Positions 12,595-56,857 are shown, counted from the stretch's first letter. The stretch: 64,000 bases of DNA from an uncultured Acidobacteriota bacterium (GCA_963703985.1 CAVPGH010000001.1:1122746-1186745); one strand, 5' to 3'. Notes: generated by a model not told the origin, from the sequence alone. Program-made: numbers and translations.

Positions 12595-13842
12595 TCACGG
12601 CTCGGAGAGCGCCGCGTCGATCGGAAAGGTCTCTCCCGACCAGGCGCGCTTTGCGGTCCAGGGCTCGGGCGGCGCGGACCAGAACGGATCGGCGGCGGGG
12701 AGGCCGAGCGGCAGGAGGCCCACCGCGCAGAGGTAGAGGCTGCCCGTGGAGATGTAGCGCTCGCCGATGCCGGGCTGGTGTCCGCAGAAGCCGATGCGGA
12801 GCCAGCCCTGGGCGTCGAACGTGCCGGGAGCCTCGATCGACCGCCGGATCATCGCGGTGAGCGCGCCGCGCACCTGCGACGGCGCCACCCCCGCGGGCAG
12901 GTCGCGCCGGAGCGCCATCTGGGCGAGAAGCTGGAAGGCCCCGAAGCGATAGGCGATCGAGCGGCCGATCGCGGGGAACGTCCCCTCGGGCGAGACGAGC
13001 CGCTCCTGCAGGGCCGCGTGGCGGCGGGCCCGCGCCACCGCGGGGGCCTTCATGGCCTGCCACGCGGGGGACCGGGGGCCGCACACCTCGAGCACATCGA
13101 GCAGCATCGGCTGGATCACGAAGCTGTTGTAGTAGTCCCAGTGGAACTCCGGCCCGTCCCCGTACACGCCGTCGCCCTTGTACCACTGCGCGTGCTGGCG
13201 CAGCGCGTAGTCGACCCGTGTCGTGTCCCACCCCGCGTCCAGGCGCGCGAGCCCCGCTTCCACCATGGCCGTGAAGAGCAGCCAGTTGCTGAAAGCGGGC
13301 TGGATGACCCGCGTCGACTCCAGGGCCCGGACGAGGTCGCTCTTCGTCCGGGGAGGGAGGGACTCGAGGAGCACCTGGGGGGCGCGCAGCAAGCCGTGGG
13401 CGAGGAAGGCCGCGTCCACGAGGGGCTGGCGCTCGCGCGTGAAGTTCAGGAAGTCGGGAGAGCCGGGATCGACCGCGCTCCCGATCGCGCGCCGGGCCAG
13501 GTCCGCGTACTTCGCGCGCAGCGCGCCCTCGGGGCTCCCGTCGTCGCCGAGCTCCAGCCAGGGCGCGATGCCCGCGACCAGCCGGCCGAGCGCCTCGAGA
13601 TGCGTGACCGAAGCCCGGCCCGCGCCCGCCGCTTCTTCAACCGGCATTCGGGCCTTGAGCGTTCCGTTCGCGAGGTTCGTCAGGACCGGATCGGCGAGAC
13701 GCCGGGCCACTCCCACCCAGTACCCGCGGTCGGCGGCGCCGGTCGGGCTGGTCTCGGCGCGCGCCGGTGCGCCGCCGGCCGCGCCCAGGACGACACGCGC
13801 GGCCGTCCCCAGGAAATCCCGCCGGCCCGACGGCCCGCTCAT
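12595..13842 (-). CDS. DUF2264-family protein, Tat signal
   Basis: MSGPSGRRDFLGTAARVVLGAAGGAPARA Tat motif; DUF2264-like central region (HWDYYNSFVIQPML); 4-nt overlap (ATGA) with the downstream isomerase gene. Confidence 0.55.
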   Translation of the reverse strand: MSGPSGRRDFLGTAARVVLGAAGGAPARAETSPTGAADRGYWVGVARRLADPVLTNLANGTLKARMPVEEAAGAGRASVTHLEALGRLVAGIAPWLELGDDGSPEGALRAKYADLARRAIGSAVDPGSPDFLNFTRERQPLVDAAFLAHGLLRAPQVLLESLPPRTKSDLVRALESTRVIQPAFSNWLLFTAMVEAGLARLDAGWDTTRVDYALRQHAQWYKGDGVYGDGPEFHWDYYNSFVIQPMLLDVLEVCGPRSPAWQAMKAPAVARARRHAALQERLVSPEGTFPAIGRSIAYRFGAFQLLAQMALRRDLPAGVAPSQVRGALTAMIRRSIEAPGTFDAQGWLRIGFCGHQPGIGERYISTGSLYLCAVGLLPLGLPAADPFWSAPPEPWTAKRAWSGETFPIDAALSEP

Positions 13843-14684
13843 CGCCCGAAGGCTCCCCTGAGGAACGCGATCGTCCGCGGGGCTTCCAGCGCAAAGTCGG
13901 CCGACCGCGCCTCGACGCTCATCCGCCCCTTGTAGCCGATCTTGCGGAGGCTGTCGAAGAAGCCCGCGTAGTCGAACTCCTCCCCGCGCAGCGGGAAGAC
14001 CCGTCCCGTGGGGTTGGCCATGTGCACGTGCCGCACGTGCGGTCCCGCCTTCACCACGACCCTCGGGTCTTCCTTCACCTCGGCCAGGTGGTAGAAGTCG
14101 ACGGTGAGCTGGATGGCGGGATCGTCGACCGTGCGCACGAGGTCGAGACCCCCCGCCACCGAGTTGACGATGTTGCTCTCCTCCGGGCGCTGGGGCTCGA
14201 TGGCGATCGTGATCCCGCGGCTCTTCGCCTCCGGGGCGAGCCGCCGGCAGAAGCCGACGAACTGGTCGAGCCCCTTCTCCTTCGAGAATCCCTCGGGGAC
14301 GCGGCGGGCGGTGCCGCTGCCCAGGACCACGGTCTGGGCCCCCAGTCGGGCGACCCGCGTGAGGGCCTTCTTCACGTAGGCCATCTGCGCGGCCTCGTCG
14401 ACGGCGGGGCCCGTGAGCTTGAGGTCGGGAGGGATGAACAGGAACGTCACGGGGACCGGCGGCCCGTCGCGCTTCAGACCTTCCGCCAGCATCTCGAAAT
14501 CGGCGTCAGAGAGCGCGGCCACTTCCGACGTGCGCAGCTCGACGTAGTCGAAGCCGGCGGCCCGCACCGCATCGATCTCCTTGAGGGTGGAGCAGTAGCC
14601 GATGGGAATGGTCTCCCTCTCGCCCCCTCGTCCCGCGGCCGCAAGCAGGAGCAGGGGCCAGAGAGAGAGCCACGGGCGCTTCAT
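13839..14684 (-). CDS. sugar phosphate isomerase/epimerase (xylose-isomerase-like TIM barrel), secreted
   Basis: True start MKRPWLSLWPLLLLAAAGRG at 14684 (the ORF-track start 15032 is too far upstream); TIM-barrel motifs GFDYVEL...ITIAIEP...HVHMANP. Confidence 0.65.
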   Translation of the reverse strand: MKRPWLSLWPLLLLAAAGRGGERETIPIGYCSTLKEIDAVRAAGFDYVELRTSEVAALSDADFEMLAEGLKRDGPPVPVTFLFIPPDLKLTGPAVDEAAQMAYVKKALTRVARLGAQTVVLGSGTARRVPEGFSKEKGLDQFVGFCRRLAPEAKSRGITIAIEPQRPEESNIVNSVAGGLDLVRTVDDPAIQLTVDFYHLAEVKEDPRVVVKAGPHVRHVHMANPTGRVFPLRGEEFDYAGFFDSLRKIGYKGRMSVEARSADFALEAPRTIAFLRGAFGR

Positions 14685-14841
14685 GGATGGGCGCACGCTA
14701 GTTCGGTTGGGGGCGGCGGTCAAGACCTCGGGCGCTTGTATGCTTCGCCGGGCCCGTCGCCTGGCGTCACGGCCGAATCGCGGGCCGAAGTTGCCTTGAA
14801 TCGCCCTCTCTGCCAAGCTCTCCGCCGCCAAGGAGGGCTCG

Positions 14842-16263
14842 ATGGCGGCACGGCGCGAGTTCATCAAGACGACGGTCCTGGGAGCGGCGGCGGTGGGCCT
14901 GGGGACGACCGCGCGCGGGCAGACCCGCGTCCTGGGCGCGAACGACCGGGTGGTCCTCGCCTCGATCGGCATCCGCGGGCAGGGCAACGCGCTGAAGCGC
15001 GGGTTCGCCCGCCTCAAGGGGGTCGAGATCAAGACGCTGTGCGACGTCGACGAGAACCTGTTCGCGGAGCGCGCGAACGACCCGAAGCTCGCCGACGTCC
15101 CGACCTTCCGGCCCCGCTACGAGAAGGACCTGCGCCGGGTCTTCGACGACAAGGACGTGGACGCGGTGATGATCGCCACCCCCAACCACTGGCACGCGCT
15201 CGCCTCGATCTGGGCGATGCAGGCGGGCAAGCACGTGTTCGTGGAGAAGCCAGCCTCCCACACGGTCTGGGAAGGCCGCCAGATGACGGACGCGGCGCGG
15301 AAGTACAAGAAGATCGTCCAGGTGGGGACGATGAACCGCAGCCGGCCCGCGGTGCAGACCGCGATCAAGTTCATGCACGACGGAGGGCTCGGCAAGCTCT
15401 ACATGGCCCGCGGCCTGTGCTTCAAGGTGCGACCCTCGATCGGGAAGTACCCCGACGGGCCGCTCGCCCCCGGGGAGAAGTACCGGCTGAACGTCGAGGC
15501 CAAGGACTACGAGCCCACGTGGGACGCGGCCTACCTGGCCAAGGTCGACTACGACCTCTGGCAGGGCCCCGCGCCCGCCCGCCCGTTCAACCGGAACCGC
15601 TTCCACTACAACTGGCACTGGCACTGGGACACCGGCAACGGCGACACCGGCAACCAGGGCCCGCACCAGTTCGACATCGCGCGCTGGGGCCTCGGGATCG
15701 GCGTGCACCCCGTGCGGATCAGCTCCACCGGCGGCCTCTACGAGACCGGGGAGAGCTCGCAGGAGACCCCCAACGTCCACACCTCGCTCTTCGAGTACGA
15801 GGACGGCCGCGTGATCGAGTTCGCCACCCGCGGCACGATCACGAACGCGGAGGGCGGGCAGCGCATCGGCAACCTCTTCTACGGGACCGGGGGCTGGCTC
15901 TTCATCGACGGCGACGGCCGCGAGTGGCAGAGCTACCTGGGACGGAAGGAGGAGAAGGGCCCCGGCTCCGGCCCCGCGCCCGCCCAGGGTGGGGGCGACC
16001 CCAACGTCCTCACCAGCATCGAGTACCCGCACTACCAGAACTTCGTCGACGCTCTACGGGCGGGAGACCCCAAGAAGCTCAACTGCGAGATCGAGGAGGG
16101 GCATCTCTCGTCGACCCTGCCCCACCTCGCCAACATCGCCTACCGCCTGAAGCGCACCGTGCGCTTCGACCCCAAGACGGAGACGATCCCGGGCGACGCG
16201 GAGGCGAACCGGCTGCTCACCCGGGAGTACCGCGACCCGTACCGGGTGCCCGAAAGGCTCTGA
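14842..16263 (+). CDS. Gfo/Idh/MocA family oxidoreductase, Tat-exported
   Basis: MAARREFIKTTVLGAAAVGLGTTARGQ Tat signal; Rossmann VLASIGIRGQGN; AAGGAG RBS. Confidence 0.85.
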   Translation: MAARREFIKTTVLGAAAVGLGTTARGQTRVLGANDRVVLASIGIRGQGNALKRGFARLKGVEIKTLCDVDENLFAERANDPKLADVPTFRPRYEKDLRRVFDDKDVDAVMIATPNHWHALASIWAMQAGKHVFVEKPASHTVWEGRQMTDAARKYKKIVQVGTMNRSRPAVQTAIKFMHDGGLGKLYMARGLCFKVRPSIGKYPDGPLAPGEKYRLNVEAKDYEPTWDAAYLAKVDYDLWQGPAPARPFNRNRFHYNWHWHWDTGNGDTGNQGPHQFDIARWGLGIGVHPVRISSTGGLYETGESSQETPNVHTSLFEYEDGRVIEFATRGTITNAEGGQRIGNLFYGTGGWLFIDGDGREWQSYLGRKEEKGPGSGPAPAQGGGDPNVLTSIEYPHYQNFVDALRAGDPKKLNCEIEEGHLSSTLPHLANIAYRLKRTVRFDPKTETIPGDAEANRLLTREYRDPYRVPERL

Positions 16264-16264
16264 G

Positions 16265-17305
16265 GTGACCCGGCCGGGATGGGGTGTGCTCGCCACGCTC
16301 CTCGTCGCGCTCCCGGGCGCGGGCGGAGAACCGGCGATACAGGTCGTCGGCCGGGAGCGCGACCGGCGTGTCGACGTCCTCGTGGACGGGCAGCCCTTCA
16401 CGTCCTACATCTGGCCGGAGTCGCTGACCAAGCCCGTGCTCTATCCCCTCCGCACCGCGAAGGGGACGCTCGTCACGCGCGGCTTTCCCCTCGACCCGCG
16501 CCCCGGCGAGCGGACGGACCATCCCCACCACGTCGGGCTGTGGTTCAGCTACGGGGACGTGAACGGCGTCGACTTCTGGAACAACTCCTCGGCCCTGCCT
16601 CCCGAGCGCCAGGGGAAGATGGGCCGCGGCCGTCAGGTGCGCGTCGTCTCCGCGCAGAGCGGCGACCAGGAGGGCCGCCTGCGCGTCCTCGTCGAGTGGG
16701 TGATGCCGGACGGGACGGTGGCCCTGGAGGAAGACGCGACCTTCGTCTTCCGGAAGACGCCGGGCGGTCTCCTCGTGGACCGGATCACGACCCTCACCGC
16801 CCGCGAGAAGGCGGTGGAGTTCGCCGACAACAAGGAAGGAGTGCTCGGCCTGCGCGTGGCCCGCGCCCTCGAGCAGCCCTCGAACGAGCCGGCCACGTTC
16901 ACCGACGCCGCCGGCCAGCCCACGACCGTGGCCAAGCTCGACAACACCGGCGTGACCGGCCTCTACCACAGCAGCGAGGGCAAGGAAGGCGACGCGGTGT
17001 GGGGGACCCGGGGGCGGTGGTGCGCGCTGTCCGGCCGTCTCGGCACCGAGGACGTGACGCTCGCCATCCTCGATCATCCGGAGAATCCCGGGGCCCCCAC
17101 GTATTGGCACGCCCGGGGCTACGGGCTCTTCGCCGCGAATCCCCTCGGCCAGAAGGCGTTCTCGGACGGCAAGGAGACGCTCGACTTCACGCTCGCTCCG
17201 AAGGCCTCGGCCACGTTCCGCTATCGCCTGGCCATCCTGTCCCGTCCCTTCGTGGCGTCCGAGGTCGACGCGCTGGCCCGGAGCTTCGCGACCAAGACGC
17301 GCTGA
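16265..17305 (+). CDS. PmoA-family (DUF6807) protein
   Basis: GTG start 2 nt after the Gfo stop; conserved YIWPESLTKPVLYPLRTAKGTLVTRGFPLDP..DHPHH.GLWFSYGDVNG pattern of the PmoA-like family that commonly partners Gfo/Idh/MocA oxidoreductases. Confidence 0.55.
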   Translation: MTRPGWGVLATLLVALPGAGGEPAIQVVGRERDRRVDVLVDGQPFTSYIWPESLTKPVLYPLRTAKGTLVTRGFPLDPRPGERTDHPHHVGLWFSYGDVNGVDFWNNSSALPPERQGKMGRGRQVRVVSAQSGDQEGRLRVLVEWVMPDGTVALEEDATFVFRKTPGGLLVDRITTLTAREKAVEFADNKEGVLGLRVARALEQPSNEPATFTDAAGQPTTVAKLDNTGVTGLYHSSEGKEGDAVWGTRGRWCALSGRLGTEDVTLAILDHPENPGAPTYWHARGYGLFAANPLGQKAFSDGKETLDFTLAPKASATFRYRLAILSRPFVASEVDALARSFATKTR

Positions 17306-20271: not shown

Positions 20272-20343
20272 GTTGACGCCCCTCCGGAGGCCGGGCTATC
20301 GTCGGCCGGCCGCAGGGAACCTGCCGTCTTCGGGAGATGCGCG

Positions 20344-21585
20344 ATGCCCGTGAAGCCCTTCCAGCCGCAATACATGAAGATAGGCGTGCTCACCGCCGCC
20401 CTCCAGGAGCTGACCCCGCGCGCCGTCCGCGATCCCGATCCCGACCGGGCGATCGAGGACTGGGCGGCCTTCGCCCGCAAGGTGGGTGCCGACTACATGC
20501 AGCTCTCCGCCGCCCTGCACCCGAGCGAGAGCGACGTGCCCGCGGAGGCGATGCTGGATCCCGTGGCCAACACGCTGGACCTGCGCAAGCCCTTCGACAG
20601 GGAGCGGGCGAAGAGAGTGCGCGCCGCTCTCGAGATGAACCGCCTCGGCCTCTCGGACCTCGGCTACTTCGACAACATGCTCCACGACGAGCCGGCGGTC
20701 CGCAGGAAGAAGCACGACTTCATGAAGCGGGTGATGGACGCGGCTGTCCTCCTCGGGGTGGACGCGGTCTGCGGCTTCGTCGGACGCAACCAGAAGCTCT
20801 CGATGGACCAGAACCTCGTGGACTTCGCCGAGGTGTTCGTGCCGCTCCTCCAGTACGCCAGGGAGCGGGGCCTCGTCTATCGGGTGGAGCAGTGCCCGAT
20901 GCCGGGCTGGACCACGGGCGACAACTGGCACAACAACATCGCCTACGTGCCGGGGACGTGGATCGCCCTGCACCGCATCTGCGAGAAGCACGGTGTGGGC
21001 GACCGGTTCCGGATCCACTACGACCCCTCCCACGCGATCCTGATGGGCCAGGACACGCGCTCGCTCTTCCAGTACCTGAAGGACGAGGGCTACGACTTCC
21101 TGATCGGCGGCTTCCACGTGAAGGGCCAGGTGGTGGACGCCAAGGGCGTGTCCGGGTGGGGCTACGGGGGCCAGACCGTGGAGCGGGGCGACTGGAAGAA
21201 CGGGAAACCCTCGGAGAGTCCGGCGGACCAGGTCAACGCGTGGAAGAAGCAGACCGTGCTCTGCGAGCACGAGCTGCCGGGAACCGCGAAGCACGATCCC
21301 CTCGCCTACCTCCAGAACCGCACCGTGGACTGGCTCGACCACCAGCTCGCCGCCCGCGAGCTGCTGAAGCTGGACGTGGCCAACACCCACCTGGTGGTCG
21401 AGCACGAGTACCCGAAGGCGCGCATCCAGGACGCGGAGCGGCTCGCGCCCATCCTCGCGGGGTCGATCGCCTTCACCCGGAAGATCGACGAGGCGGCTGC
21501 GTGCATGTACGCGCTGCAGCACGAGGTCCTGGCCGCCCAGGGCATTCCCGCCCAGGGCCGTGGCCGCGAGGCCTACCGGAGCTGA
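20344..21585 (+). CDS. sugar phosphate isomerase/epimerase (xylose-isomerase-like TIM barrel)
   Basis: TIM-barrel metal-site motifs ([18 protein letters not shown]); 413 aa; directly upstream of the GMC gene. Confidence 0.7.
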
Positions 21586-21594
21586 ACGGACCCC

Positions 21595-23288
21595 ATGCAG
21601 ATCGTGGCCAAGGCGAAGACGTACGACGTGTGCATCGTCGGCTCCGGCGCCGGAGGCGGCATGGCGGCCAAGGTCCTGGCCGAGGCGGGCGCCGATTGCG
21701 TGCTCCTCGAGGCGGGGCCGATGTGGGCGGCGAACAAGGACGGCGCGATGTTCAAGTGGAACTACGAGTCGCCGCGCCGCGGCGGCGGCTCGCGCCTCCG
21801 GCCCTTCGGCGAGTACGACGGCTGCATCGGGGGCTGGGACATCGAGGGCGAGCCCTACACCGTGGCCGAGGGCGATCGCTTCCTCTGGTTCCGCGGGCGG
21901 ATGCTCGGCGGGCGCACGAACCACTGGGGGCGGATCTCGCTGCGGGCGGGACCCTGGGACTTCAAGGGGAGGAGCCGCGACGGCCTCGGCGACGACTGGC
22001 CCATCGGCTACGATGACCTCAAGCCCTACTACGACCGGCTCGACGAGCTGGTCGGCCTCTACGGGTCGAACGAGGGGATCGAGAACGAGCCGGACGGGAT
22101 CTTCCAGCCGCCGCCCCCGCCACGGGCCTACGAGGGGCTCATCAAGAAGGCTTCCGACCAGCTCGGCGTTACCTGCATCCCGGCCCGGCGCTCCGTCCTC
22201 ACGAAGCCCCTGAACGGCCGGGCCCCCTGCCACTACTGCGGGCAGTGCCACCGCGGGTGCTCCACCGGCTCCAACTTCTCGACCCCGTCCGTGCTCCTTC
22301 CCCCCGCGCTCGCGACGGGACGCCTGACCCTCGTGACCGGGGCCATGGTCCGGGAGGTGCTGACGAACGAGGAGGGCCTGGCCACCGGCGTGTCGTACGT
22401 GGACACCGCCACCGGGCGCGAGCAGCAGGTGCGCGCCAAGATCGTGGTCCTTGCCGCCAGCGCCTGCGAGACCGCGCGTCTGCTCTTCAACTCGAAGTCG
22501 CCGCGGCATCCCGCCGGCCTCGCCAACTCCAGCGGCGCCGTCGGCCGCTACCTGACCGACACCACCGGCTCTCACCTGAGCGGCCACGTCCCCGCGCTCG
22601 AGGCCCTGCCTCCCTACAACGAAGACGGCACCGGAGGCATGCACGTCTACATGCCCTGGTGGCTGGACAACCGCACGCTCGACTTCCCGCGGGGCTACCA
22701 CATCGAGCCCTGGGGCGGCCGCTCGATGCCCGGGATCGGATTCATGGGCGGCATCCACCGCCTGCAGGGCGGCGGTTACGGGAAGAAGCTCAAGGACGAC
22801 TATCGCCGGCTCTACGGCTCGTTCGTCGGCTTCGCCGGCCGCGGCGAGATGATCCCCAACAAGGACTCGCTACTGCGAGATCGACCCGCGCGTGGTGGAC
22901 AAGTGGGGGATCCCCGTCCTGCGCTTCCACTGGAAGTGGTCGGACTACGAGCTCCTCCAGGCCCGGCACATGCAAGAGACGTTCGTCCGCATCATCGAGG
23001 CCATGGGGGGCAAGGTGATGGGCGACGTGCCCGGCCGGGCCGAGGAGTACGGCCTGAAGGTCGGGGGCGAGATCATCCACGAGGCGGGCACCACGCGCAT
23101 GGGCACGAGCCCGCTGCACCTCGGTCCTGAACGAGTGGTGCCAGGCCCACGACTGCAAGAACGTGTTCGTGGCGGACAGCGGGCCCTTCGTCAGCAACGC
23201 CCACAAGAACATGACCTGGACGATCCTCGCCCTCTCCATGCGGACGAGCGAGCACATCGTCGAGGAGCGACGGAAGGGGAACCTCTGA
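21595..23288 (+). CDS. GMC-family FAD oxidoreductase (glycoside 3-dehydrogenase-like catalytic subunit); two apparent +1 frameshifts
   Basis: N-terminal FAD motif [23 protein letters not shown]. Homology continues in a second frame from about 22866 ([19 protein letters not shown]...) and a third frame from about 23120 ([56 protein letters not shown]), matching the intact paralog at 58014-59708. Stop TGA overlaps the next gene's ATG. Confidence 0.7.
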
Positions 23289-23943
23289 TGAGCGAGATCG
23301 CACGACGTTCGGCCCTGCGCCTGATCGGGGGCGCGCCCCTCGCCGCGGGCTTCGGTCTGGGCGGGGGCGGGGGCGGCGCGGCGCCGGGGAGCAGGCGGCG
23401 AAGGCGGTGGCCGCCTCCCGCCAGGGCGTCGTCTACAAGCCGAGGTTCTTCACCGCCCACGAGTGGGAGACGGTGCGCGTGCTCGTGGACCTGATCCTCC
23501 CGCGCGACGAGCGGTCGGGCAGCGCCACCGACGCGGGCGTGCCCGAGTTCATGGACTTCTTCCTGACCGATCCCTACGAGGACGATCGCTCCCGCGAGAG
23601 CCGCCAGACCGCGATGCGGGGAGGCCTCGCCTGGATCGACGCGGAGTGCCGGCGCCGCTTCGGGGGCAAGGACTTCACGGAGTGCGCGGCACGCCGAGCA
23701 AGCCGCGCTCCTCGACGACATCGCCTACTGGAAGGGCGACGAGGAGGACGACCGGGCGATGCGCGACCGGGGCCCGCACGTCCTCCTGCGCCACGGCCCC
23801 AACTTCTTCAATTCCTTCCGGGACCTCACGGCCTCGGGCTTCTGGAGCAGCAAGATGGGCGTCGAAGATCTCGGCTACAAAGGCAACACGTTCGTCGTGG
23901 AGTTCCAGCCCCCGCCCGCGGAGGTCCTGCGCAAGCTCGGGCT
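23288..23943 (+). CDS. gluconate-2-dehydrogenase subunit-3-family small subunit (Tat signal), frameshifted
   Basis: [25 protein letters not shown] twin-arginine signal, then a frame change to ...AKAVAASRQGVVYKPRFFTAHEWETVRVLVDLILP..., and another to ...EQAALLDDIAYWKGDEEDDRAMRDRGPHVLLRHGPNFFNSFRDLTASGFWSSKMGVEDLGYKGNTFVVEF. No stop before the downstream DUF1080 ORF. Confidence 0.55.
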
Positions 23944-24694
23944 CGTGGTCGCGCTCGTCGCCTTCCTGGGGCCGGCGGCGGTTCGCGCCGCCGACGTCGG
24001 CAACTGGCCCATCCACGACCGCACCCGTCCCGCCCCGAAGGCGGTCGATCCGGGCACCGCCAGCACGCAGGAGCAGCCAGGCAAGCCGCCCTCGGACGCG
24101 ACCGTGCTCTTCGGCGGGAAGGACCTCTCGCTCTGGAAGTCCAAGAAGGACGGCGGCCCCGCCAAGTGGAAGGTGGAGAACGGCTACATGGAAGTCGTGA
24201 AGGGAACGGGCTACATCGAAACGGCCCAGGGCTTCGGCGACTGCCAGCTCCACGTGGAGTGGATGGCCCCTTCGCCGCCGGTGGGCCAGGACCAGGACCG
24301 CGGCAACAGCGGCGTCTTCCTGATGGGCCAGTACGAGGTGCAGGTGGTCGACTCCTATGAGAGCGCGACCTATCCCGACGGCCAGGCCGCGGCCCTCTAC
24401 GGTCAGTACCCGCCCCTCGTCAACGCCTCGCGTCCGCCCGGCCAGTGGCAGACCTACGACATCGTCTTCCACGCGCCGCGCTTCGACGCCGAGGGGAAGG
24501 TGACGCGGCCGGCGCGGGTGACCGTCCTGCACAACGGGGTGCTCGTGCAGGACGACGCGGAGCTCACCGGCCCTACGGCGCACAAGGCGCGCCCGCCCTA
24601 CACGGCCCACCCCGCGAAGCTGCCCCTCGCCCTGCAGGACCACGACCACCCGGTCCGCTATCGGAACATCTGGGTCCGGGAGCTGGCGGAGTAG
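23944..24694 (+). CDS. DUF1080 (3-keto-disaccharide-hydrolase-like, laminin-G jellyroll) protein
   Basis: Putative GTG start giving signal peptide VVALVAFLGPAAVRAADV; WKVENGYMEVVKGTGYIETAQGFGDCQLHVEW...NSGVFLMGQYEVQV...LPLALQDHDHPVRYRNIWVRELAE is characteristic of DUF1080. It is in frame with the upstream small-subunit ORF without an intervening stop. Confidence 0.65.
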
Positions 24695-24741
24695 GAGCCG
24701 CAGATACCGTCACGCGGGAGGGCTCGGCCGGAGATCGAGCG

Positions 24742-25964
24742 CTAGCGCGGGGTCCGCGCCGCCGGCCGCGCCTGCGCGGACCGCTTCTCGATCAGGAACG
24801 CCGCGAGGTCGGCCATGTCGCCGGGCCCGAAGCGTGGCCAGAGCACGCCCAACTTGCGCGATTCCTCTTCCATTTTCGGCGCGTGGTTCCACATCGCCGC
24901 GATGATGGCGATGGGGTCGTCGAGCTGGGGCACCTCGGCCAGGTTCGGCCCCAAGGCCGCGGCGGTGTGGCACCGCGAGCAGCGTTCCTCGAAGAGGCGG
25001 GCGCCGCGAGAGGGCGTGCCGCGAACGTCGGCGTAGTTCACGAAGTAGAGGTAGGCGATGATGTCCGCCATCTGCTCGCCCGAGAACTTGGTGTGGCTGA
25101 TCCCGCGGCGGGCGAACTCCGCGACCATCCCCTGGCCGTGGTTCCACATGACGCCGGCGATGGCCGATACCGAACCGATCAGCTCCCGGCGTCGCGTCCC
25201 GAGCTCGGGGCCGCCCCGGCCGCCCGTCCCGCCAACCGAGTGGCAGGCGTCGCAGCGCTTCGCGGCGAACAGGTCACGACCGCGCCGCGGGCTGCCGGGC
25301 TCGAAATACACGGGCTCGGCGCGACCCCACGTTGCCTGCCTGCAGGTAGCCGAGCAGGTCGCCCATCTCCCGACCCGCGAACCTGGGCCAGGGGATGCTC
25401 TGTCCCCGCATCAGCTTGGCCATCTCGGGCCCATGGTTCCACATCGCCTGGGCCAGGAAGATGGGCGAGAAGCGCCCCCGGTAGCGGTCCAGGCTCGGCC
25501 CGGGCTTGTCCCAGGAGTCGCCGCCTCCGTGACAGCTGCACGCATCCCTTGGAGACGAAGACGGCATGGCCCGCCGCGGGATTCGCCGGCTCCCCGACTT
25601 CGGTCAGGTAGTAGCGGTAGGCCGTGAGGAAGGCGACGAGGTCGGCCATCTCGCGGCTCGTCATCGTCGGCGCGGGGATCTTGAGGTCCTGCATCTTCTC
25701 CCGCATCACCGGAGAGTGGTTCCAGAAGGCGCCGGCGATGTCGAGCACCGTCCCCGTCAGGTGAATGCGTCCGAGGTCGGGCCCGACGCGCGCCTCCTCC
25801 CCGCCCAGCGAGTGGCAACGGACGCAGGCCTTCGTCACGAAGAGCCGCGCGCCGGCCGTCGGGTTGTTCGGCAGCTCGACCGAAAGGCGCACCGAGGGCT
25901 CCTCGGCCGCCGAGACGACACTCAGGCCGAGCAGGGCCACCGAGCCCAGGAGCCGGGCGCGCAT
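24742..25964 (-). CDS. c-type cytochrome of four tandem homologous monoheme domains (frameshifted)
   Basis: Signal peptide MRARLLGSVALLGLSVVSAAEE. Four repeats each carrying G.RLF...C..CH (CVRCH, C.SCH, CDACH, CSRCH), (A/V)xWNHxPxM, and MADLxAFL. Reading-frame changes at about 25570 and about 25320; the ATG overlaps the NrfD stop (TGATG). Confidence 0.6.
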
Positions 25965-27274
25965 CAGGCACCCACCTCGGCCATCTCTGCACCGGGGTGG
26001 TCGGCCCGCGTCCTGCGGCGCCGCCTCCTCCAGCTCCCAGATCGAGATGATCGGAAACAGCTTCGTGAACCCCATGTACAGCAGCGCGAAAGCCGCAAAG
26101 CAGCCCGCCATCAGCGACCACTCGACCCAGCTCGGCGCGTATCCGAAGCCGTGGATCGGCGCCCGCGGGTTCGAGAGCGACGGCACCACGATCGTGAAGC
26201 GCTCGAGCCACATCCCGATGTTGACCGAGATCGACGCCACCACGGTCCCCGCCACCGTGCGCGTCTTGTTGTTGGCCAGGATCACGAACGGGATCACGAA
26301 GCAGAAGACGAACATCGCCCAGAAGTAGGGGGCGAAGTGGCCCGAGAACTTGGCGTCGAAGACCGCGATCTCGTTGGGCTCGTGCGCGTACCAGGTCGTC
26401 AGGTACTCCGCGAAGGTGAAGTACAGCCACAGGCACGCCATCACGCAGCAGCAGCAGCCCGAGGTTGTTGAAGTGGATCGGCTTGCAGGTAGGCCTCGAG
26501 CCGGTACACCTTCCGGACGATCACCATCGCCGTGATGATGGCCGCGATCCCGGAGAAGATCGCCCCGACCACGAAGTACGGCCCGAAGATCGTGGAGTGC
26601 CACATCGGCTGGATCGTCATGGCGAACACCCACGACACCACGGTGTGCACGGAGACGGCGATCGGAATCACCAGGATCGCCATCACGCCGATGGCTCGCT
26701 CGAGGCGGTGCCATTGCTGCGGCGTGCCCGTCCAACCGAGCGACAGCCGTCGCGTAGAACCGGTGGCGCCAGCCTCGCCGTCCGATCGCGCAGCAGCGCG
26801 ATGTCCGGGATCAGCGGGCAGGTACAGGTAGAGGCTGCTGGCGGTGAGATAGACGCTGATGCTGGCCACGTCCCACAGCAGCGGCGAGCGGAAGTGCGGG
26901 TGCAGGATGACGTTCAGGGCGCGATCCGGCCGCCCCAGGTCCAGCAGCACGTTGCCGACGCCGAAGAAGAGCACCAGGACGGTGATCACCTCGGCCATCC
27001 GCGTGATCGGCCGGCGCCACTCGGCCTGAACGATGCGCAGGATCGCCGAGATCAGCGTCCCGGCGTGAGAGACGCCGATGAAGAAGACGAAGTTGGTGAT
27101 GTAGAGCCCCCAGTACACCGGCCGGCCGAGCCCGGTGGCTCCGAGGCCATGGATGAGCTGCCACGACCAGGCCATGACCGCCCAGGCGACCACGGCCGCC
27201 AGGCCGAGGGCCCATCGCCTGAAGGAAGGCCCCGTCGTCAGGACCGGCTCGAGGATGGCCGTGCTCTCCCTGCA
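25964..27274 (-). CDS. NrfD/PsrC-family integral membrane quinone-interacting subunit (frameshifted)
   Basis: Pieces in three frames: PSFRRWALGLAAVVAWAVMAWSWQLIHGLGATGLGRPVYWGLYITNFVFFIGVSHAGTLISAILR... and ...LWLYFTFAEYLTTWYAHEPNEIAVFDAKF...GMWLERFTIVVPSL...: polytopic NrfD-like. ATG at 27274 is 2 nt after the FeS-gene stop. Confidence 0.65.
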
Positions 27275-27276
27275 TG

Positions 27277-27956
27277 GCTACTCGCCCTCGCGCAGGTAGA
27301 CCACCTTGGGTCGCGTGCCCAGCTCCTCCATGAAGCGGAAGGCGCGTGCGCTCTCCACCAGCGGGGCGACGGGGTCGTGCGGATCGTCGAGATCGCCGAA
27401 GACCAGGGCCTCGGCGGGACAGGTCTGGACGCAGGCCGGCACGTAGTCGTCCGGCGCCAGCTCGCGCCCCGCCGCGCGCGGCGCGCTCGCGTGCCAGCAT
27501 CAAGCGGTGATGACAGAACGTGCACTTCTCGACGACGCCCTTGGGCCGCACCGACACGTCCGGGTTCATCATCGAAGCCATCGACTCGGGCCACTCCGGC
27601 GTGGTCCAGGTGAAGACCTTGACGGCGTAGGGACAGGCGTTGGTGCAGTAACGGCAACCGATGCAGCGCGGATAGACCTGCGCGACGATGCCTTCGGGGT
27701 TCAGGTAGGTGGCGCTCGTCGGACAGACGTCCACGCACGGCGGCCGATCGCAGTGCTGGCACATCAGCGGAAGCACGGCGGCCCCGGCGCGGCCCGGCAC
27801 CTCGGCCGGCACGAGCTGCAGCCAGGTCATGAGGCGGCCCTCGGCCGCGACCTCCGGCATCGAGAACGGCACGTTGTTCTCGTGCTTGCAGGCGACCACG
27901 CACGCCTGACAGCCGGTGCAACGGTCCAGATCGACGACCAGGCCCCAGCGCGACAC
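27277..27956 (-). CDS. 4Fe-4S ferredoxin-type subunit (PsrB/NrfC/ActB2-like), one frameshift
   Basis: GTG start with AGGAGG RBS; four Cys clusters (CTGCQACVVACK, CQHCDRPPCVDVCP, CIGCRYCTNACP, CTFCHH); after about 27460 the C-terminus continues in another frame (ELAPDDYVPACVQTCPAEALVFGDLDDPHDPVAPLVE...VVYLREGE*). Confidence 0.75.
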
Positions 27957-27966
27957 GAGATGCCTC

Positions 27967-30181
27967 CTAGGCGCGCGTGACGCGCACCATCAAATCCCCG
28001 CCGACGGGCGACGTCGTCCGCGAGCAGGCGCAGGTCCGAAGCGATTTTGCGCGCCCAGCGACCGCTCCCCGGGACGGCCGGCACGAAGGCGAGCGCGACC
28101 GAGTCGGCGGGCATCTTCTCGACCAGGACCGCCACCGCCTCCACCGCGCCCCGCGGCGAGACGATCCGGATGCGGGCGCCCGCCCCGACCGCCAGCGCGC
28201 GCGCGGTCTCGGGGCTCAGCTCGGCCCAGGCCTGCCACGGCGCGCCGTCCGGCTGGCCGAGCAGCTCGAAGAGCGCGGGCTGGTTGGGGCTGCCCCGGTC
28301 GGTGACGAGGGCCGGCTTGAACGGAACGAGGCGCAGGGGATACTCGGCGGCCCCGACCCGCGCCGACGAGCGCCCGGCGGCCGCTTTCGCCAAGGCCACG
28401 GCCGGCGATGAAAGGCGCAGGCCCGCGCGGGCGCGCAGCGATTCACGGACCCGCCCCGGGGTGACGTACGGGTCGGCCCAGCCGCCGGCCTCCACCACCG
28501 CCGCGGCGAACGCTTCGCGGGATGGCGCCGGGGCGACCCACCAGCCGCCCTTTTCGAGCTGCCGCACCCATTCGGTTTCGTAGAGGTCCGAATAGGGAGC
28601 GCCGCGCCTCAGGCCACAGAGCCGCTCCAGCTCGTCGTGAACGACGTCGTCCGAGGCCGTCCATGGGCACGCGCCGGCGAGCGGCTCGCCCGCGCCGACC
28701 GCGACGTCCTTGAGCAGAGAGGCCGCGTCCTTCGTGGACAGCAGCGGCTTGACGGCCGGCTTGGCGATGGCCACCGCTTCGAGGGCAGCGGCCTGAGCCG
28801 GCAGCGTGGCGTGCCAGCTCTCGAGAGCCGTGTGCGTTGGCATCAGCAGGTCGGCGATCGCCGCGGCTTCGTCGAGGAAGGGGGAGAAGCTCACGACGAG
28901 GTCCGTCGGCCGCAGCGCCGCCCCCAGGTTGCGCGGCGATGCCAGCGCGCGCAGCGCCGAGGCGTCCCGGAAGGCCAGGATCGCGGGACGGATCCGGCCC
29001 TCGGCGACCTCCCGCAGCGTCGTCGTCGCGTCTTCCACCTCGGCGGCCGGGCGCCGGGGCGCGCAGGTCACGCCGCCCGCCCGGTCGAACGCGCCGATGA
29101 GCGCATTGAGGGCGAAGACCGCCTCGACCAGGGAACGGTCGGCATCCGCCGCCACCACCGCCAGCGGTCTGGCGCTGCTGGCCAGCTCGCGGGCCAGCCG
29201 GAGCACCGTCACCACCGGCACACCGGTCACCGAAGCGACGTCGTCGGGCGTGTAGTTGGCGGCCACCTCGCGCTCGAAAGCGGCGAGGTCGCCCCCCAGG
29301 TCGTCGAGGAACGCGCGGTTGACGCGGTTCTCGCGCAGCAGGACGTAGGCGATGCCGTAGGCGAGCACGGCCTGCCTTTCGGAATGGACCGCGAGCCACT
29401 CGTCGGCCTTGCGCGCCGTCATCGAGCGGCGGGGCTCGATCTGGACCAGCCTTCCCCGCGCGCCGGATCCGCGCCGGAAGCGGCCGTAGCTGCGCTGGGT
29501 CCAGACTCCCGACAGCCAGTCCTCGGCGACCGGCGCGCCGAACGACAGCACGTAGCTGGCGTGCTCCAGGTCGAAGAGCGGATCCGCGGAGACGCCGGTC
29601 AAGGCCCGGAAGGCAGGGCCGAGCCGGGCCGCGCTAGCGGCCCGCGTCCACACGACCCGGGCGCCCGCCGCCGTCCAGAAGCGCGTCCAGGCGTCGGCCA
29701 AAGGCCCCTCTTCTTCGGAAGCGAGGGCAAGCACGCCTTGGCGCCCACCGCCGGCATCCCGCAGTCGCGATGCCAGGAGGGCGATCGCGGCGTCCCACGT
29801 GATCGGCTCCCACTGCCCTTCGCCTCTCTTCCCCACGCGTCGAGCGGGGCCCACCAGACGGTCGGGGTCGAAGTAGGACTCGAGCGATGCCTGGCCCTTC
29901 GCGCACAGCCGCCCGCGCGAGACGGGGCAGAGCGGGTTGCCCTCCAGCTTGACCGGCGCGCCGTCCATCAGCCGTACGCGGATCCCGCAGGCCGCCGGGC
30001 ACTCGCGACAGACGCTCGTGGCCCAGCTCTCGACGCCTCGTCCCCGCCAGCCGGCGGCGCGCTCGTCGGCGCGCGCGAGCTGTCGACGGCCCAGCTCCCC
30101 GAGCGTGATGCCGGCGAGGGTCGCGCCCCCGTAGACCAGGAAGTCCCGGCGGCTCAGCGATTGGTCGCTCATCGATGGCAC
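27967..30181 (-). CDS. molybdopterin-oxidoreductase-family catalytic-like subunit (PsrA/ActB1-like), Tat-exported
   Basis: MSDQSLSRRDFLVYGGATLAGI Tat signal; N-terminal FeS motif CRECPAACGIRVRL...CPVSRGRLCAKGQA; about 735 aa. The ORF-track frame runs on to 27827, but the likely true end is ...GDLMVRVTRA* in another frame (stop at about 27967) just before the FeS-gene RBS. Confidence 0.75.
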
Positions 30182-30651
30182 GCCGCGCAGTCCTGGCTGG
30201 CGCCCTCACGCTTGTGGCAGTCGAGACAGGCGTTCATATCCAAGCGCATCGGTGGGCGCCCGGGCGGCACGGCGCTCGTCCCCACGTCCGCGTGGCACGA
30301 CGCACACTCGAGCCGGGCGAGGCCGACGTGGCGCCGGTGAGAGAACATGACGTGCTCCGGGAGATGGGAAACGCGCAGCCAGGCGATCGGCTGGGCGCGC
30401 CCGGCCTCGTCCCATTTCACCCCCGCCGCGGCCCTCGGAGCCGTGGCGTGGCACTTCAGGCACACCGCCGCCTCGGGGATGCCGGCACGGGCTTGCTCAA
30501 AGGCGCCGCGGTGGCAGACGCCGCAGCCCATCCCTGCATGCCGGGCATGGTTGAAGGCGACAGGCTGGGCGAGGGGCGCCCGCGGCAGCAGCAGCATCCA
30601 TGCGCCGGCCACGGCCAGCGTCAGCGCGGCGAATCGAAGCAATCGGCCCAT
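30169..30651 (-). CDS. pentaheme c-type cytochrome (NrfB/ActA-like)
   Basis: Signal peptide plus five CxxCH motifs (CGVCH, CLKCH, CASCH, CLDCH, CAACH) in 160 aa; overlaps the Mo-subunit start by 13 nt. Confidence 0.75.
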   Translation of the reverse strand: MGRLLRFAALTLAVAGAWMLLLPRAPLAQPVAFNHARHAGMGCGVCHRGAFEQARAGIPEAAVCLKCHATAPRAAAGVKWDEAGRAQPIAWLRVSHLPEHVMFSHRRHVGLARLECASCHADVGTSAVPPGRPPMRLDMNACLDCHKREGASQDCAACHR

Positions 30652-30663
30652 GAGGGAAGCGGC

Positions 30664-31077
30664 CTAAAGGCCGGGTTTCGCCGCCGCCTCTTTGAGCTTC
30701 TTGTCGTAGAGCTCCTTCTTGCGGATCTTCGAGTCGTACACGACGAACTCGAAGATCTGCTTGCCCTCGTCCGGGCTGATGAAAGTGCCCGCCTTGCGCA
30801 TCATCCTCTTGATGTAGCGCTCCCACTCGTCGTCGAGGACGAATTCGCAGTTGATCGCGCGGGCCGGCGTGTGGCACTTGCTGCACTTCGTCAAGAAGAC
30901 CTTGTAGCGGGCCTTCATGTCTTCGGGGTACTTGGAGACGTCGATCTTGGCCGGACCCTTGTCATACGCGAGGATCCGCGGATCGACCGGCTCCTCCTTG
31001 TCCTGGGCCACGATCTTCAGGGCGAGCGCCGCGAAGGCCAGCAAGACAAGCGCGGTGACCGTAACGGTACGTGTCAT
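30664..31077 (-). CDS. monoheme c-type cytochrome, secreted (lysine-rich, lower GC)
   Basis: Signal peptide MTRTVTVTALVLLAFAALALK; single CSKCH; GC visibly lower (about 60%) than the flanks. Confidence 0.6.
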   Translation of the reverse strand: MTRTVTVTALVLLAFAALALKIVAQDKEEPVDPRILAYDKGPAKIDVSKYPEDMKARYKVFLTKCSKCHTPARAINCEFVLDDEWERYIKRMMRKAGTFISPDEGKQIFEFVVYDSKIRKKELYDKKLKEAAAKPGL

Positions 31078-31093
31078 GTCGGAAGCTCCTCCT

Positions 31094-33793
31094 CTAGAAG
31101 TTCAGGATGTAGGACACACCGAAGATGCTCACCCCGTAATTGAACGGCTGCTCGTTGGTCGGCAGCACGCCGCTCAGCGACCCGAGCTGCATGCCCTCGT
31201 AGGCCGGGTCGTTGGATCGCATGCGCAAGTACGAGTAGTCCAGGCGCACCGACTGGCGCTTGTCGATCGCGAATCGGCCGCTCAGGCGCAGCTCGCCCGT
31301 GTTGGTGGTGATCGTCGGCATCGGGGCGCCCGCGATGAAGAACGCCGCGATGGTCGTCGGAGGCCCGCCCGGGCCGTTGAGGATGTTGTTGGCCCAGTTT
31401 CCGCCCGCCGCTGCGCTGGTGTCCGACCGCGCGCGGGACAGGATCAAGTTGCCCAGAAGGTCGAAGCTGCCGGCCCGCTTCCGCAACCCGACGCCCACCG
31501 TGTGCACCTTGTCGAGCATGTTCGTGGACCAGTCCAGGCACGGGTCCAGCTTGTTGTTGTTGTTCCGCTGTTGCAGCGTGGTGTAGCCGTCGCAGCTGTT
31601 GCCCGAGAGGCCGACCGCCCCTGGCTGACCGTTGTTCAAGGCGGCCACGTTGCTGTTGGCCGTATAGCTGTTGCCCGCGCGTCATGGGAACTGAAGTTCT
31701 CGTACGTGTAGCAGACGTTCACGCTCGTGGCGTCGCCCAGCGCGTAGGTCCCGTCGACGTTCACGGCCCAGTTCTTTGCGTCCTGAACGCCGTAGGTCGA
31801 GCCGGGGTAGCGGTCCTTGTTGAGATCCAGGCCGCCCTGGAACGACAGCTGCTCGGTTGCCTGCCAGCTGAGCAACGCGCGCAGCTTGTCTCGATTGCGA
31901 TCCGCCACGTAGTAGCGGCGCATCCCCGGAAGCTCGCTGATCCGGTTGTTGTTGGCGTACATCGCGTTGGCCAGGGCGTTGTTGCTCGGGAAGAACAGGT
32001 TCATGTTGCCGGTGGTGACGGCGAAGCCGGCCGCAGGTCCCCATCCGTTCCAACCGTTCGCCTGCATGAACGAAAGAGCGGTCGCGCCCCCGGTCGCCGC
32101 GGCCGGGCTGACGTTGGCGTACGGGACCAGCGCCAGGAAGGCGTTCTCGTTGTAGTCCGGCGCTCTGCGCGCGGAATACGCATAGCCGACCCGGGCGGTG
32201 ACCTTCTCACCCAGCGTGCGCCCGCCATTCGGCCCGCAGCGTGTGCTCGTTGGTCGTCGCCGCATCCGCGCAGCTGATCCAGGACGCGAAGCAGGCGCGG
32301 TCGATCTTCTCGAACTCGTAGCCGACCTTGATCCACTGGCCCTTCACGAAGCCGTAGTCGGCCTCGGCGGTGACCTGATTGAGCTTCCTGCTGTACGGAC
32401 GATTGGCGTTTGCGTTCTGTGCGACAACGGCGCCGAGAGGATTGTTGGGGCCGGCGGGGAAATTGGCGTTCGCCGCGGGCGCTTCGCCGGCGTCCGCGTA
32501 CTGGTAGATGTTGACGGCGGTGCGGTTGTCGCGGTCGTCGTACCTGTACGCCGCGGTCAGGGTCAGCTTCTTTGCCGGCCGGGTCGTGAATCGGCGTTGA
32601 ACGTCGTGGTCACGACGAGGCCGTCCAGCGAGCTGACCGGCACCACCGGCGTCGTCGCATCGGTCAGGAACGCGTCGTTCTGCGTGTTGCGTCGCGTACG
32701 ATCCGGTCGCGACCAGCTTGGTGGTCGAGCGAGAAGTTCATGCCGCCGGTCGCGTTCCACTGGTTGAAGGTGTTGCCCGGCGTGCTGCTCATGGTGTTGA
32801 CCGACCCTCGTGGGGGTCGCCCAGTTCTGCCACGACATGAACGGCACGTTGTTCTTGAAGAACGAGCCGTAGTACCCGGCCTGCGCGAAGCTCTTCGGGC
32901 CCGTGAAATTCAGACTCATGGCGACCTGGTTGTGATCGGTGTCGATCACATCGGGAATGATGGTCGAGATGTCGGCGCCGGTGTTTCGAGAGACCGTCCC
33001 CATCGGCTTCACACCGTCCTTGTGCTCGGGCCGGAAAGTCACGTCGACTCCCCAGCGCTGGTCGAAGTTGTAGTTGAGGCCGACGTCGAACCTCGTGCGC
33101 TTCGTGAACAGGTTGAAGTTGTGGAACAGCGGCACGTCGGCGGCCGCGGCGGCGTCGACGAGCGCCGTCTGGGCCGCGTTCGGCGTTCGCAACGCGCCCA
33201 TCGCCGGCGAGTTCGTCGCGACGTCGATGTAAGGCGCGTCGCCGATCGCCGGGATGAGGCCTCGCGCGCTGACGATGTTCGTCGTGTTGTTGGTGCCGCT
33301 GCTTCCGGCCACCGTCGGTACGATGCCAGGATCGCGGCAACGTGAGGACGTTCGTCCCCGTGCCGTTGAACGGCGTCTGATACGTGTCCGATCGGTTCCG
33401 GCGCAGCTCGTCGTAGCCGAACGTCAGCCGGAACTTGCCCTGCTGGCCGATCTGGGCGGATGCATTCGCGATCTCGAGGCCGAGATCGGTGCCCTTGATG
33501 CGCCACCGCAGCGTGCTGTCGCTGTTGTAGCCGGCGGCGCCGCCGCGCCAGTCGAGGTTGCCGATGCCGAACGCGCCCTTGTTCTCGAGGCCGTTGTATT
33601 CGCCGGCCTTGTAGGACCCGTCGCCGACGGTGCCCGCGCCGACTTCGACCGTGCTCGTCGGCTTGGTTTGGGCTTCCGCATGGGCAGCGTACGCGCGCCA
33701 GCGCCGCCGCGAGCGCGACTCGAGCGACGGCCACGCGAGCCCGGGTAGGCGAATTCGCTGTGCGTTTGTCATGACATCGCTCCCTGATCGCAT
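31094..33793 (-). CDS. MtrB/PioB-family outer-membrane porin (decaheme-associated beta-barrel), multiply frameshifted
   Basis: About 900 codons spread over at least three frames (ORFs 32789-33793, 32563-33312, 31636-32265, 31094-31648). Recurring beta-strand, Gly/Asn/Tyr-rich composition and the motif GYDELRRNRSDTYQTPF; terminal YILNF aromatic C-terminus; lies immediately downstream of the decaheme cytochrome. Confidence 0.55.
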
Positions 33794-33797
33794 CGGG

Positions 33798-56824: not shown

Positions 56825-56857
56825 CGAGCCCCCGTTCGCGGCCCCCCGCCCGCCGGG

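Follow-up and report, generated by a model that had tools for sequence, protein, structure and literature searches.

We analysed a stretch of 64,000 nucleotides from an uncultured Acidobacteriota bacterium (GCA_963703985.1, CAVPGH010000001.1:1122746-1186745; G+C content about 70%), referred to below as the window. Positions 20344-24694 of this window carry three genes that encode a xylose-isomerase-like TIM-barrel protein of 413 aa (TIM413), a flavoprotein of the GMC oxidoreductase family, and a protein in which a small subunit with a twin-arginine translocation (Tat) signal is fused to a DUF1080 domain. Two of the genes have interrupted reading frames; their frame-corrected products were pieced together from three-frame translations and then scanned with Pfam. 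The features of the locus are as follows:

20273-20302, plus strand: sigma-70-like promoter match (TTGACG, 18-nt spacer, TATCGT), within the 72-nt gap 5' of the TIM413 gene
20344-21585, plus strand: TIM413, 413 aa, xylose-isomerase-like TIM barrel; uninterrupted open reading frame (ORF); Pfam AP_endonuc_2 (PF01261), 67.9 bits
21595-23288, plus strand: GMC flavoprotein catalytic subunit, 563 aa after removal of two extra bases; Pfam GMC_oxred_N and GMC_oxred_C
23288-24694, plus strand: Tat small subunit-DUF1080 fusion, 467 aa after removal of three extra bases; both domains found with Pfam
23303-23390, plus strand: twin-arginine signal, with RRSALRL, the hydrophobic stretch IGGAPLAAGFGLGG and an A-x-A-like site, read directly from the sequence
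23458-23885, plus strand: Gluconate_2-dh3 (PF13618) hitch-hiker small-subunit domain; Pfam 104.9 bits, E = 5.7e-30
23936-23989, plus strand: internal hydrophobic linker LGLVVALVAFLGPAAVRA; Kyte-Doolittle mean 2.0-2.4
24005-24691, plus strand: DUF1080 (3keto-disac_hyd, PF06439) domain; Pfam match 24098-24679, 157 bits (cut-off 26.8)

The four protein families named for this region in an earlier annotation made from the DNA alone (the sequence-only reading) were all recovered at 20344-24694 by Pfam searches after frame correction. That reading had counted four genes; there are three, the small subunit and the DUF1080 domain forming a single protein (465-468 aa in intact relatives). The TIM413 and GMC genes are separated by 9 nt, and the gap between the GMC and fusion genes is -1 nt: the TGA that ends the former (23286-23288) and the ATG that starts the latter (23288-23290) share one base, so that the TGATG overlap described previously is real. 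The 9-nt spacing and the 1-nt overlap indicate co-expression of the three genes. The putative promoter, a consensus match only, is a single site against 0.1 expected in shuffled sequences. A search of the window against Rfam detected no RNA family, and NCBIfam held no specific family for TIM413, the GMC protein or the fusion protein.

The GMC dehydrogenase and its fused Tat partner

The corrected GMC protein matches GMC_oxred_N (58.1 bits) and GMC_oxred_C (68.4 bits), both above the curated Pfam cut-offs, and is 88% identical to the intact 564-aa ortholog of the closest relative (L001, a 4.7-Mb contig of an acidobacterial metagenome-assembled genome, MAG, whose TIM413 is 94% identical to that of the window). 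It has no signal peptide and begins directly at the FAD-binding motif GSGAGGG (21640-21660, residues 16-22). The reference set used for its classification was small (one glycoside 3-dehydrogenase, EC 1.1.99.13, namely GlycDH of Rhizobium sp. GIN611, plus the content of the PDB), and the GlycDH sequence was machine-read, with a few gaps, from the PDF of Supplementary Table 6 of PMC10628242. Within this set phmmer ranked GlycDH clearly highest (219 bits, 31% identity, full length), ahead of the fructose dehydrogenase (FDH) large subunit FdhL (7w2j; 147 bits, full length) and the alpha subunit of the Burkholderia FAD-glucose dehydrogenase (FAD-GDH; 6a2u; 144 bits); CarA (7dve) was matched by the C-terminal part only (59 bits). 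Choline oxidase scored 29 bits, so the protein does not group with the choline or alcohol oxidases.

A cysteine cluster encoded at 22228-22260 aligns with the CCGNNNCMPIC segment of FDH and with the C-x5-C-x3-C arrangement of GlycDH, and the window protein also shares its ...KGNL C-terminus with GlycDH. On the basis of the FDH and FAD-GDH structures, we take the cysteine-rich FDH segment to be the site of a 3Fe-4S cluster, and the presence of such a cluster in the GMC subunit is probable. Judged by these similarities, the GMC protein and its Tat small subunit are assigned to the hitch-hiker type family of FAD dehydrogenases, with the only glycoside 3-dehydrogenase in the reference set as best match. 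The description of the pair as glycoside 3-dehydrogenase-like is thereby borne out, the best reference being a characterised enzyme.

A second GMC oxidoreductase gene, which is intact, is located at 58014-59708 on the minus strand. Its product is 41% identical to the first GMC protein and has the same cysteine cluster and a ...RGNL end; the gene is followed by one for a cytoplasmic Gfo/Idh/MocA protein (56858-57985, minus strand). No small-subunit gene was found near it (56858-59708, minus strand).

The small subunit and the DUF1080 domain are not separated by a stop codon either in the window or in L001, where the gene order is the same and the genes are intact (TIM-barrel protein of 413 aa, GMC protein of 564 aa, and a single Gluconate_2-dh3 plus DUF1080 protein of 465 aa). 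The corrected window fusion is 82% identical to its L001 counterpart. A database search with the fusion protein retrieved ten two-domain clusters from close relatives (P0121-P0130, 77-85% identity), while the more distant matches were all stand-alone DUF1080 proteins (about 260 aa), with a small number of exceptions in architecture (e.g. two GH16-DUF1080 proteins of about 510 aa, GH denoting glycoside hydrolase family). The junction can be read by comparison with the unfused proteins. Separate small-subunit orthologs (217-218 aa) terminate in ...RKLGLEP* or ...RKLGLDT*, and stand-alone DUF1080 orthologs start with an ordinary signal peptide and continue with ...WAIHDRNRP; in the fusion, the natural C-terminus RKLGL of the small subunit is joined straight to a hydrophobic A-x-A stretch (LGLVVALVAFLGPAAVRA followed by AD). 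A hydrophobic linker segment is kept in all ten fusion clusters, with a small-x-small (A-x-A-like) site in most of them, and its sequence is variable. The linker is most simply read as the retained hydrophobic region and A-x-A site of a DUF1080 signal peptide. Since ten clusters are intact and the junction agrees with the ends of separate small subunits and stand-alone DUF1080 proteins, we regard the fusion, on sequence grounds, as genuine and recent, confined to one small lineage and retaining a signal-peptide-like linker.

The Tat motif RRSALRL and the hydrophobic stretch behind it lie 5' of all frame problems of the fusion gene and are conserved in the ten clusters, so the motif survives correction. 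A canonical start codon with a charged N-region, from which DUF1080 could be translated internally, was not found at the junction. The AlphaFold2 model of the fusion protein (computed for P0121 with 23 sequences) has a pLDDT of 49, too low for conclusions on the linker.

The solved structure closest to the DUF1080 domain is PDB 4qhz (E = 6e-57), an uncharacterised protein. The domain profile scores 256 bits to 4qhz against about 26-27 bits to 8tda/8tde and 8rr2, of which 8tda/8tde are presumably Bacteroides/Alistipes pathway proteins, judging by their accession and deposit series. The window domain therefore belongs to a different subfamily (that of 4qhz) from the characterised BT2157/AL2-type lyase-hydratases, and any activity transferred to it from the latter is putative. 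Where the arrangement differs (L002, L030, L084 and L086), orthologs of the domain are still encoded close to a GMC gene paired with a small-subunit gene. In two relatives that lack the fusion (L002, 13660-17242; L003, 13636-17242), the genes for a GMC protein and a separate small subunit are followed, in this order, by a GH10 xylanase-like gene and a gene for a 511-aa protein combining the orthologous DUF1080 with GH16, a context which hints at plant or fungal beta-glycan oligosaccharides as substrates. In L084 (10551-12780), a gene for a 137-aa cytochrome c of the Cytochrome_CBB3 type is found near a stand-alone DUF1080 ortholog, flanked on one side by a Gfo/Idh/MocA gene and on the other by a GMC gene of divergent orientation; in some Acidobacteriota, GMC dehydrogenases could have such a small cytochrome as their dedicated electron acceptor.

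TIM413, a conserved acidobacterial protein family

TIM413 has no signal peptide and is therefore predicted to be cytoplasmic. In this respect the proposal of a pathway exported to the periplasm holds in part: a Tat route is available to the GMC and fusion proteins, but not to TIM413. The protein has 540 relatives in GTDB species genomes, of which the best 80 are at least 79% identical and come from several acidobacterial classes; among 1.8 billion proteins, only 789 representatives (50%-identity level) were matched at E <= 1e-3. Residues E182, D227/H230, H258 and E353/E355 show no variation within the family and agree with the usual Glu-Asp-His-Glu metal site, which makes them candidate ligands. 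The AlphaFold2 model is a TIM barrel (pLDDT 92), for which Foldseek returned generic xylose-isomerase-like barrels only, with 10-17% identity (SCO6571, ketose 3-epimerases and AtHYD). The 3-keto-glucal hydratase AtHYD (8ro4) ranked fourth to fifth in these searches (15-16% identity) and was also the sole sequence match of TIM413 among solved proteins, a match that is not significant (E = 0.35). A profile of the TIM413 family gave nothing significant against PDB sequences, AtHYD included. From these comparisons, TIM413 appears to represent a distinct, uncharacterised and very conserved acidobacterial family.

Gene neighbourhoods were compared in the best 80 of the 540 acidobacterial relatives, with GMC proteins counted as orthologous at 62% identity or more. 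A GMC gene is located directly downstream of the TIM413 gene in four of the 80 loci (L001 and L004, which are on the same contig, L005 and L052). In about 25 loci this position is taken by a ThuA homolog, often accompanied by a Gfo/Idh/MocA gene, and ThuA is the commonest neighbour of TIM413 among the partners tested across Acidobacteriota, the linkage being commoner than that to GMC. In the nearest relatives without the fusion, TIM413 is followed by a transporter of the major facilitator superfamily, which comes before the ThuA-family gene. In rhizobia, proteins of the ThuA/ThuB type are connected with the formation of 3-keto-disaccharides. Because its neighbours include ThuA, Gfo/Idh/MocA and GMC genes, the genomic context suggests for TIM413 a cytoplasmic role in handling the products of two unrelated kinds of sugar-3-oxidising systems, with no specific reaction indicated.

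Interrupted reading frames and the surroundings of the locus

Comparison with orthologs revealed five single-base insertions in the locus, near 22869 and 23114 in the GMC gene and near 23363, 23382 and 23690 in the fusion gene. If the ORF starting at 21595 is read in one frame throughout, the C-terminal part of its product is implausible. The GMC frame changes by +1 near 22870 and by +1 near 23115, and the fusion frame by +2 across 23360-23385 and by +1 at 23690. At least three of the extra bases (22869, 23114 and 23690) have no counterpart in the orthologs that align there; the remaining two (+2 net, about 23363-23382) fall within a variable signal-peptide stretch, where their exact placement is ambiguous. 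The disturbance extends far beyond the two genes. A codon-position hidden Markov model run over the window assigned almost every same-strand frame change to the interval from about 22.9 to 34.8 kb and none to 6-22.8 kb or 35-64 kb. This block of about 12 kb runs across genes that are unrelated to one another and lie on both strands. Within the convergent operon that follows the locus on the minus strand, about eight more shifts were counted by eye, and the NrfD gene is split, one ORF matching Pfam profile positions 5-200 and a second one positions 225-309. Approximately 13 shifts were counted from 22.87 to 28.0 kb, and nearly all of them are +1. Because the shifts are directional, regional and run through unrelated genes on both strands, the five frameshifts of the locus are very probably an assembly or polishing artefact and not a sign of gene decay.

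The opposite explanation, that the locus is a decaying pseudogene cluster whose frameshifts are real mutations and whose pathway is inactive in this organism, can draw on the raw sequence, which contains no intact GMC or fusion reading frame, and on the absence of the insertions from the five orthologs compared. Moreover, the protein collection includes the TIM413 protein and no exact match for the GMC or fusion protein, which is consistent with the depositors or the annotation pipeline having treated both genes as pseudogenes. We nevertheless consider decay improbable. All five events are +1, and the shifts continue through unrelated genes of the opposite strand, where nearly all of those resolved are again +1, while the sequence on either side of the affected block reads cleanly. 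Apart from the shifts, there are no premature stops or deletions. Relative to L001, TIM413 has a ratio of nonsynonymous to synonymous substitution rates (dN/dS) of 0.09; in the GMC and fusion genes all segments, also those downstream of the shifts, give 0.15-0.40, with 0.16-0.40 across the fusion gene. In addition, related long-read MAGs contain similarly split GMC genes (510 + 62 aa and 533 + 32 aa). Gene calls in about 12 kb of this assembly (22870-34800) should therefore not be trusted.

Two neighbouring gene groups bear on the interpretation of the locus. Their components are:

24742-25964, minus strand: c-type cytochrome with four domains, outside the locus and convergent with it; frameshifted
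30651 down to 24742, minus strand: operon encoding, in order, a cytochrome c7-like protein, a molybdopterin oxidoreductase with a Tat signal, a 4Fe-4S protein, NrfD and, as last gene, the above cytochrome c
12595-13842, minus strand: DUF2264 protein
13839-14723, minus strand: secreted xylose-isomerase-like barrel of 290 aa
14842-16263: Gfo/Idh/MocA dehydrogenase with a Tat signal; best PDB matches 8tdf/8tdh, then DgpA and 6a3f
16265-17305: DUF6807 protein

The sequence-only reading had noted a tetra-heme cytochrome converging on the locus and had counted a cytochrome c among the subunits of the dehydrogenase. The gene does encode four domains and does converge on the fusion gene, but three CxxCH motifs are intact and the second (GCVQ/CH) is broken by a frameshift, and the gene belongs to another operon. 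From its gene content, this operon is predicted to encode a respiratory complex of the NrfD/alternative-complex-III kind, resembling alternative complex III or a polysulfide-reductase type enzyme. In L001 the cytochrome gene is absent at this position and a gene for an FHA-domain protein immediately follows the fusion gene. The FHA ortholog of the window is found at about 55808-56825, some 31 kb beyond the fusion gene; these 31 kb, including the cytochrome operon, separate the two genes in the window and not in L001, which places the breakpoint of an insertion or of a rearrangement directly at the 3' end. The adjacency of the cytochrome is thus not conserved, and we treat it as coincidental. 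As a member of another operon that is missing at this position in L001, the cytochrome was rejected as the third subunit of the dehydrogenase; the three-gene operon itself contains no cytochrome gene. No intrinsic terminator was found between the convergent fusion and cytochrome genes.

The genes at 12595-17305 constitute a second sugar-oxidation module, 3-8 kb upstream of the locus. The structures 8tdf/8tdh, which its Gfo/Idh/MocA protein matches best, belong to the same deposit series as a glucuronide-3-dehydrogenase, and 6a3f is taken to be a levoglucosan dehydrogenase.

The proposed pathway and its alternatives

Several systems with related components have been described. An operon of A. 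tumefaciens (Bitter et al., PMC10628242) encodes GlycDH, the beta-eliminase AtOGE, the hydratase AtHYD and a Gfo reductase, with no cytochrome listed; AtOGE and AtHYD are sugar-phosphate-isomerase-like proteins, and the pathway proceeds through oxidation, elimination, hydration and reduction. In the same study, the GlycDH of Rhizobium sp. GIN611 was co-expressed by the authors with a TAT-pathway signal protein. The window operon resembles this system in combining a signal-less GMC protein and a twin-arginine small protein with a xylose-isomerase-like TIM barrel, and in the three cysteine positions and the ...KGNL end of the GMC protein. It differs in its acidobacterial host, in the fusion of the small subunit to DUF1080, in the lack of a Gfo reductase gene, and in having one TIM-barrel gene instead of two, whose product is longer (413 aa) and of another family.

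A study of Caulobacter crescentus (Price et al., PLoS Genet 2022, PMC9007349) reports genetic evidence that LacABC-type dehydrogenases and DUF1080 proteins act together in lactose use. The dehydrogenase described there, membrane-bound, periplasmic and encoded near DUF1080 genes that are genetically needed for growth on the same substrates, is similar to the arrangement in the window. The Caulobacter DUF1080 protein is separate and secreted, in contrast to the fused domain found here, and the dehydrogenase has three components, LacC being the third, whereas the window operon has no cytochrome gene. The FdhSCL (7w2j) and FAD-GDH gamma-alpha-beta (6a2u) complexes provide full-length homologs of the catalytic subunit (E ~1e-41) with the hitch-hiker architecture and an aligned cysteine region; they differ in their lower scores relative to GlycDH, in oxidising free sugars, and in possessing a multi-haem cytochrome c subunit that the window operon lacks. 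LacC, too, is a cytochrome c. Finally, in the BT2156-2160-type pathway of Bacteroides/Alistipes (bioRxiv 10.1101/2024.03.25.586180), oxidation at C3 is followed by elimination and hydration, in which DUF1080 proteins act as 3-keto-alpha-glucoside lyases and glucal hydratases, and sugar-phosphate-isomerase-like proteins as 3-keto-beta-glucoside lyases. The oxidation is catalysed there by NAD-dependent Gfo/Idh/MocA dehydrogenases, as opposed to the GMC flavoprotein of the window, and the DUF1080 proteins are distant; a Gfo-type module of that kind is present in the window, 5 kb upstream. In kind, the operon described here is equivalent to these systems, and it is distinguished from them by the fusion, a divergent DUF1080, a distinct cytoplasmic TIM family and the lack of cytochrome and reductase genes. 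Literature searches on the hitch-hiker or small subunit and GMC protein of glucoside 3-dehydrogenases, and on DUF1080 with GMC, yielded nothing useful.

We consider it reasonably probable that the locus encodes a Tat-exported periplasmic glycoside dehydrogenase of the GMC type, probably a 3-dehydrogenase, which is tethered to a DUF1080 domain that processes keto-glycosides and is co-transcribed with a cytoplasmic keto-sugar-converting TIM barrel. The three-gene operon of this Vicinamibacteria-like acidobacterium would be a module of the GlycDH/LacAB type for the oxidative (3-keto) processing of glycosides. The GMC protein, with FAD and a probable 3Fe-4S cluster, would fold in the cytoplasm, bind the Gluconate_2-dh3 part of the fusion and be carried across the membrane by the twin-arginine signal of its partner (hitch-hiking). 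In the periplasm its substrate would be a glycoside or oligosaccharide, in which it would oxidise one sugar hydroxyl, most probably that at C3, passing electrons to a soluble c-type cytochrome or a quinone that is not encoded by the operon. The tethered DUF1080 domain may then act on the keto-glycoside by elimination and/or hydration, as do the DUF1080 proteins of Bacteroides/Alistipes, and TIM413, a candidate hydratase, isomerase or epimerase, may convert the imported keto-sugar product. The oxidative 3-keto pathway put forward in the sequence-only reading is in this way retained as to the GMC/Tat family, the GlycDH match and the published co-occurrence of the components, but shorn of the cytochrome subunit, of C-glycoside cleavage and of complete export.

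Several observations weigh against this proposal. The identity to GlycDH is only 31% in a small reference set, and the substrate is not readable from the sequence. Neither AtOGE nor AtHYD nor any solved enzyme is significantly similar to TIM413 in sequence, the matches to its fold are generic, and only about 11 of the 80 loci have an orthologous GMC gene at a distance of up to 10 kb from it. The DUF1080 domain falls in the uncharacterised 4qhz subfamily, distant (26 bits) from the BT2157 type. The operon encodes no electron acceptor, and the hydrophobic linker has no obvious fit to Tat export of a folded two-domain protein.

One alternative is a periplasmic dehydrogenase of the gluconate 2-dehydrogenase, FDH or FAD-GDH type that acts on sugars, polyols or sugar acids and feeds respiration; DUF1080 would then be only a lectin-like carbohydrate-binding or glycan-hydrolysing module, TIM413 would be an unrelated neighbour, and no 3-keto chemistry would be involved. 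FDH and FAD-GDH are indeed full-length homologs, the Pfam family of the small subunit is named for gluconate 2-dehydrogenase, and the linkage of TIM413 to GMC is not general. DUF1080 has a concanavalin-like fold, one member is reported in PMC9007349 as an endo-xanthanase/lichenase, and the orthologous domain of L002 is fused to GH16 and encoded after a GH10 gene. We find this unlikely, given that the GMC protein scores clearly higher to GlycDH (219 against about 145 bits), that the gene spacing and overlap indicate co-expression of all three genes, and that published genetics and biochemistry tie DUF1080 proteins and xylose-isomerase-like barrels to 3-keto-glycosides. Such barrels and DUF1080, together with a GMC and a Tat protein, match the oxidation-elimination-hydration pathways described in PMC10628242, bioRxiv 10.1101/2024.03.25.586180 and PMC9007349. 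A C-glycoside deglycosylation system like CarA/CarBC or DgpA/DgpBC, which the sequence-only reading had also envisaged, seems highly improbable. GlycDH does oxidise C-glycosides such as puerarin and nothofagin (PMC10628242), and TIM413 shares its superfamily fold with the alpha subunits of C-glycoside eliminases; however, CarA is a distant match limited to the C-terminal part of the GMC protein, there is no ORF or space for a CarC/DgpC-type beta subunit in gaps of 9 and -1 nt, no C-glycoside eliminase appears among the sequence matches or top 50 fold matches of TIM413, and TIM413 is predicted to be cytoplasmic whereas the dehydrogenase would be periplasmic.

In an otherwise ordinary cluster of a known sugar-oxidising kind, the fusion of the small subunit with DUF1080 is the one unusual feature. 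It constitutes evidence of the "Rosetta-stone" type for a physical cooperation between glycoside dehydrogenases of the GMC type and DUF1080 proteins, a link that was previously based on gene neighbourhood and fitness data. A bolder and, as a whole, doubtful scenario is that a Tat hitch-hiker carrier captured a DUF1080 enzyme with its Sec-type signal, giving a physically coupled "oxidative glycosidase" assembly, and that TIM413 is a new, almost universally conserved acidobacterial cytoplasmic keto-sugar salvage enzyme for the products of both GMC-type and ThuA/Gfo-type systems. Under such a capture, the conserved internal hydrophobic A-x-A segment may tether the exported dehydrogenase-lyase complex to the membrane on its outer face, or may be cleaved after export.

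Returning to the proposed glycoside-processing module, two of its features deserve attention, namely a conserved signal-like linker within a Tat substrate and the uncharacterised TIM413, which we flag as a very conserved acidobacterial family tied to sugar-3-oxidation genes. Only in recent times has the breakdown of glycosides by prior oxidation to 3-keto forms come to be seen as a widespread route beside that of the classical glycosidases, and the locus described here suggests that a GMC/Tat version of this route exists in soil Acidobacteriota too.

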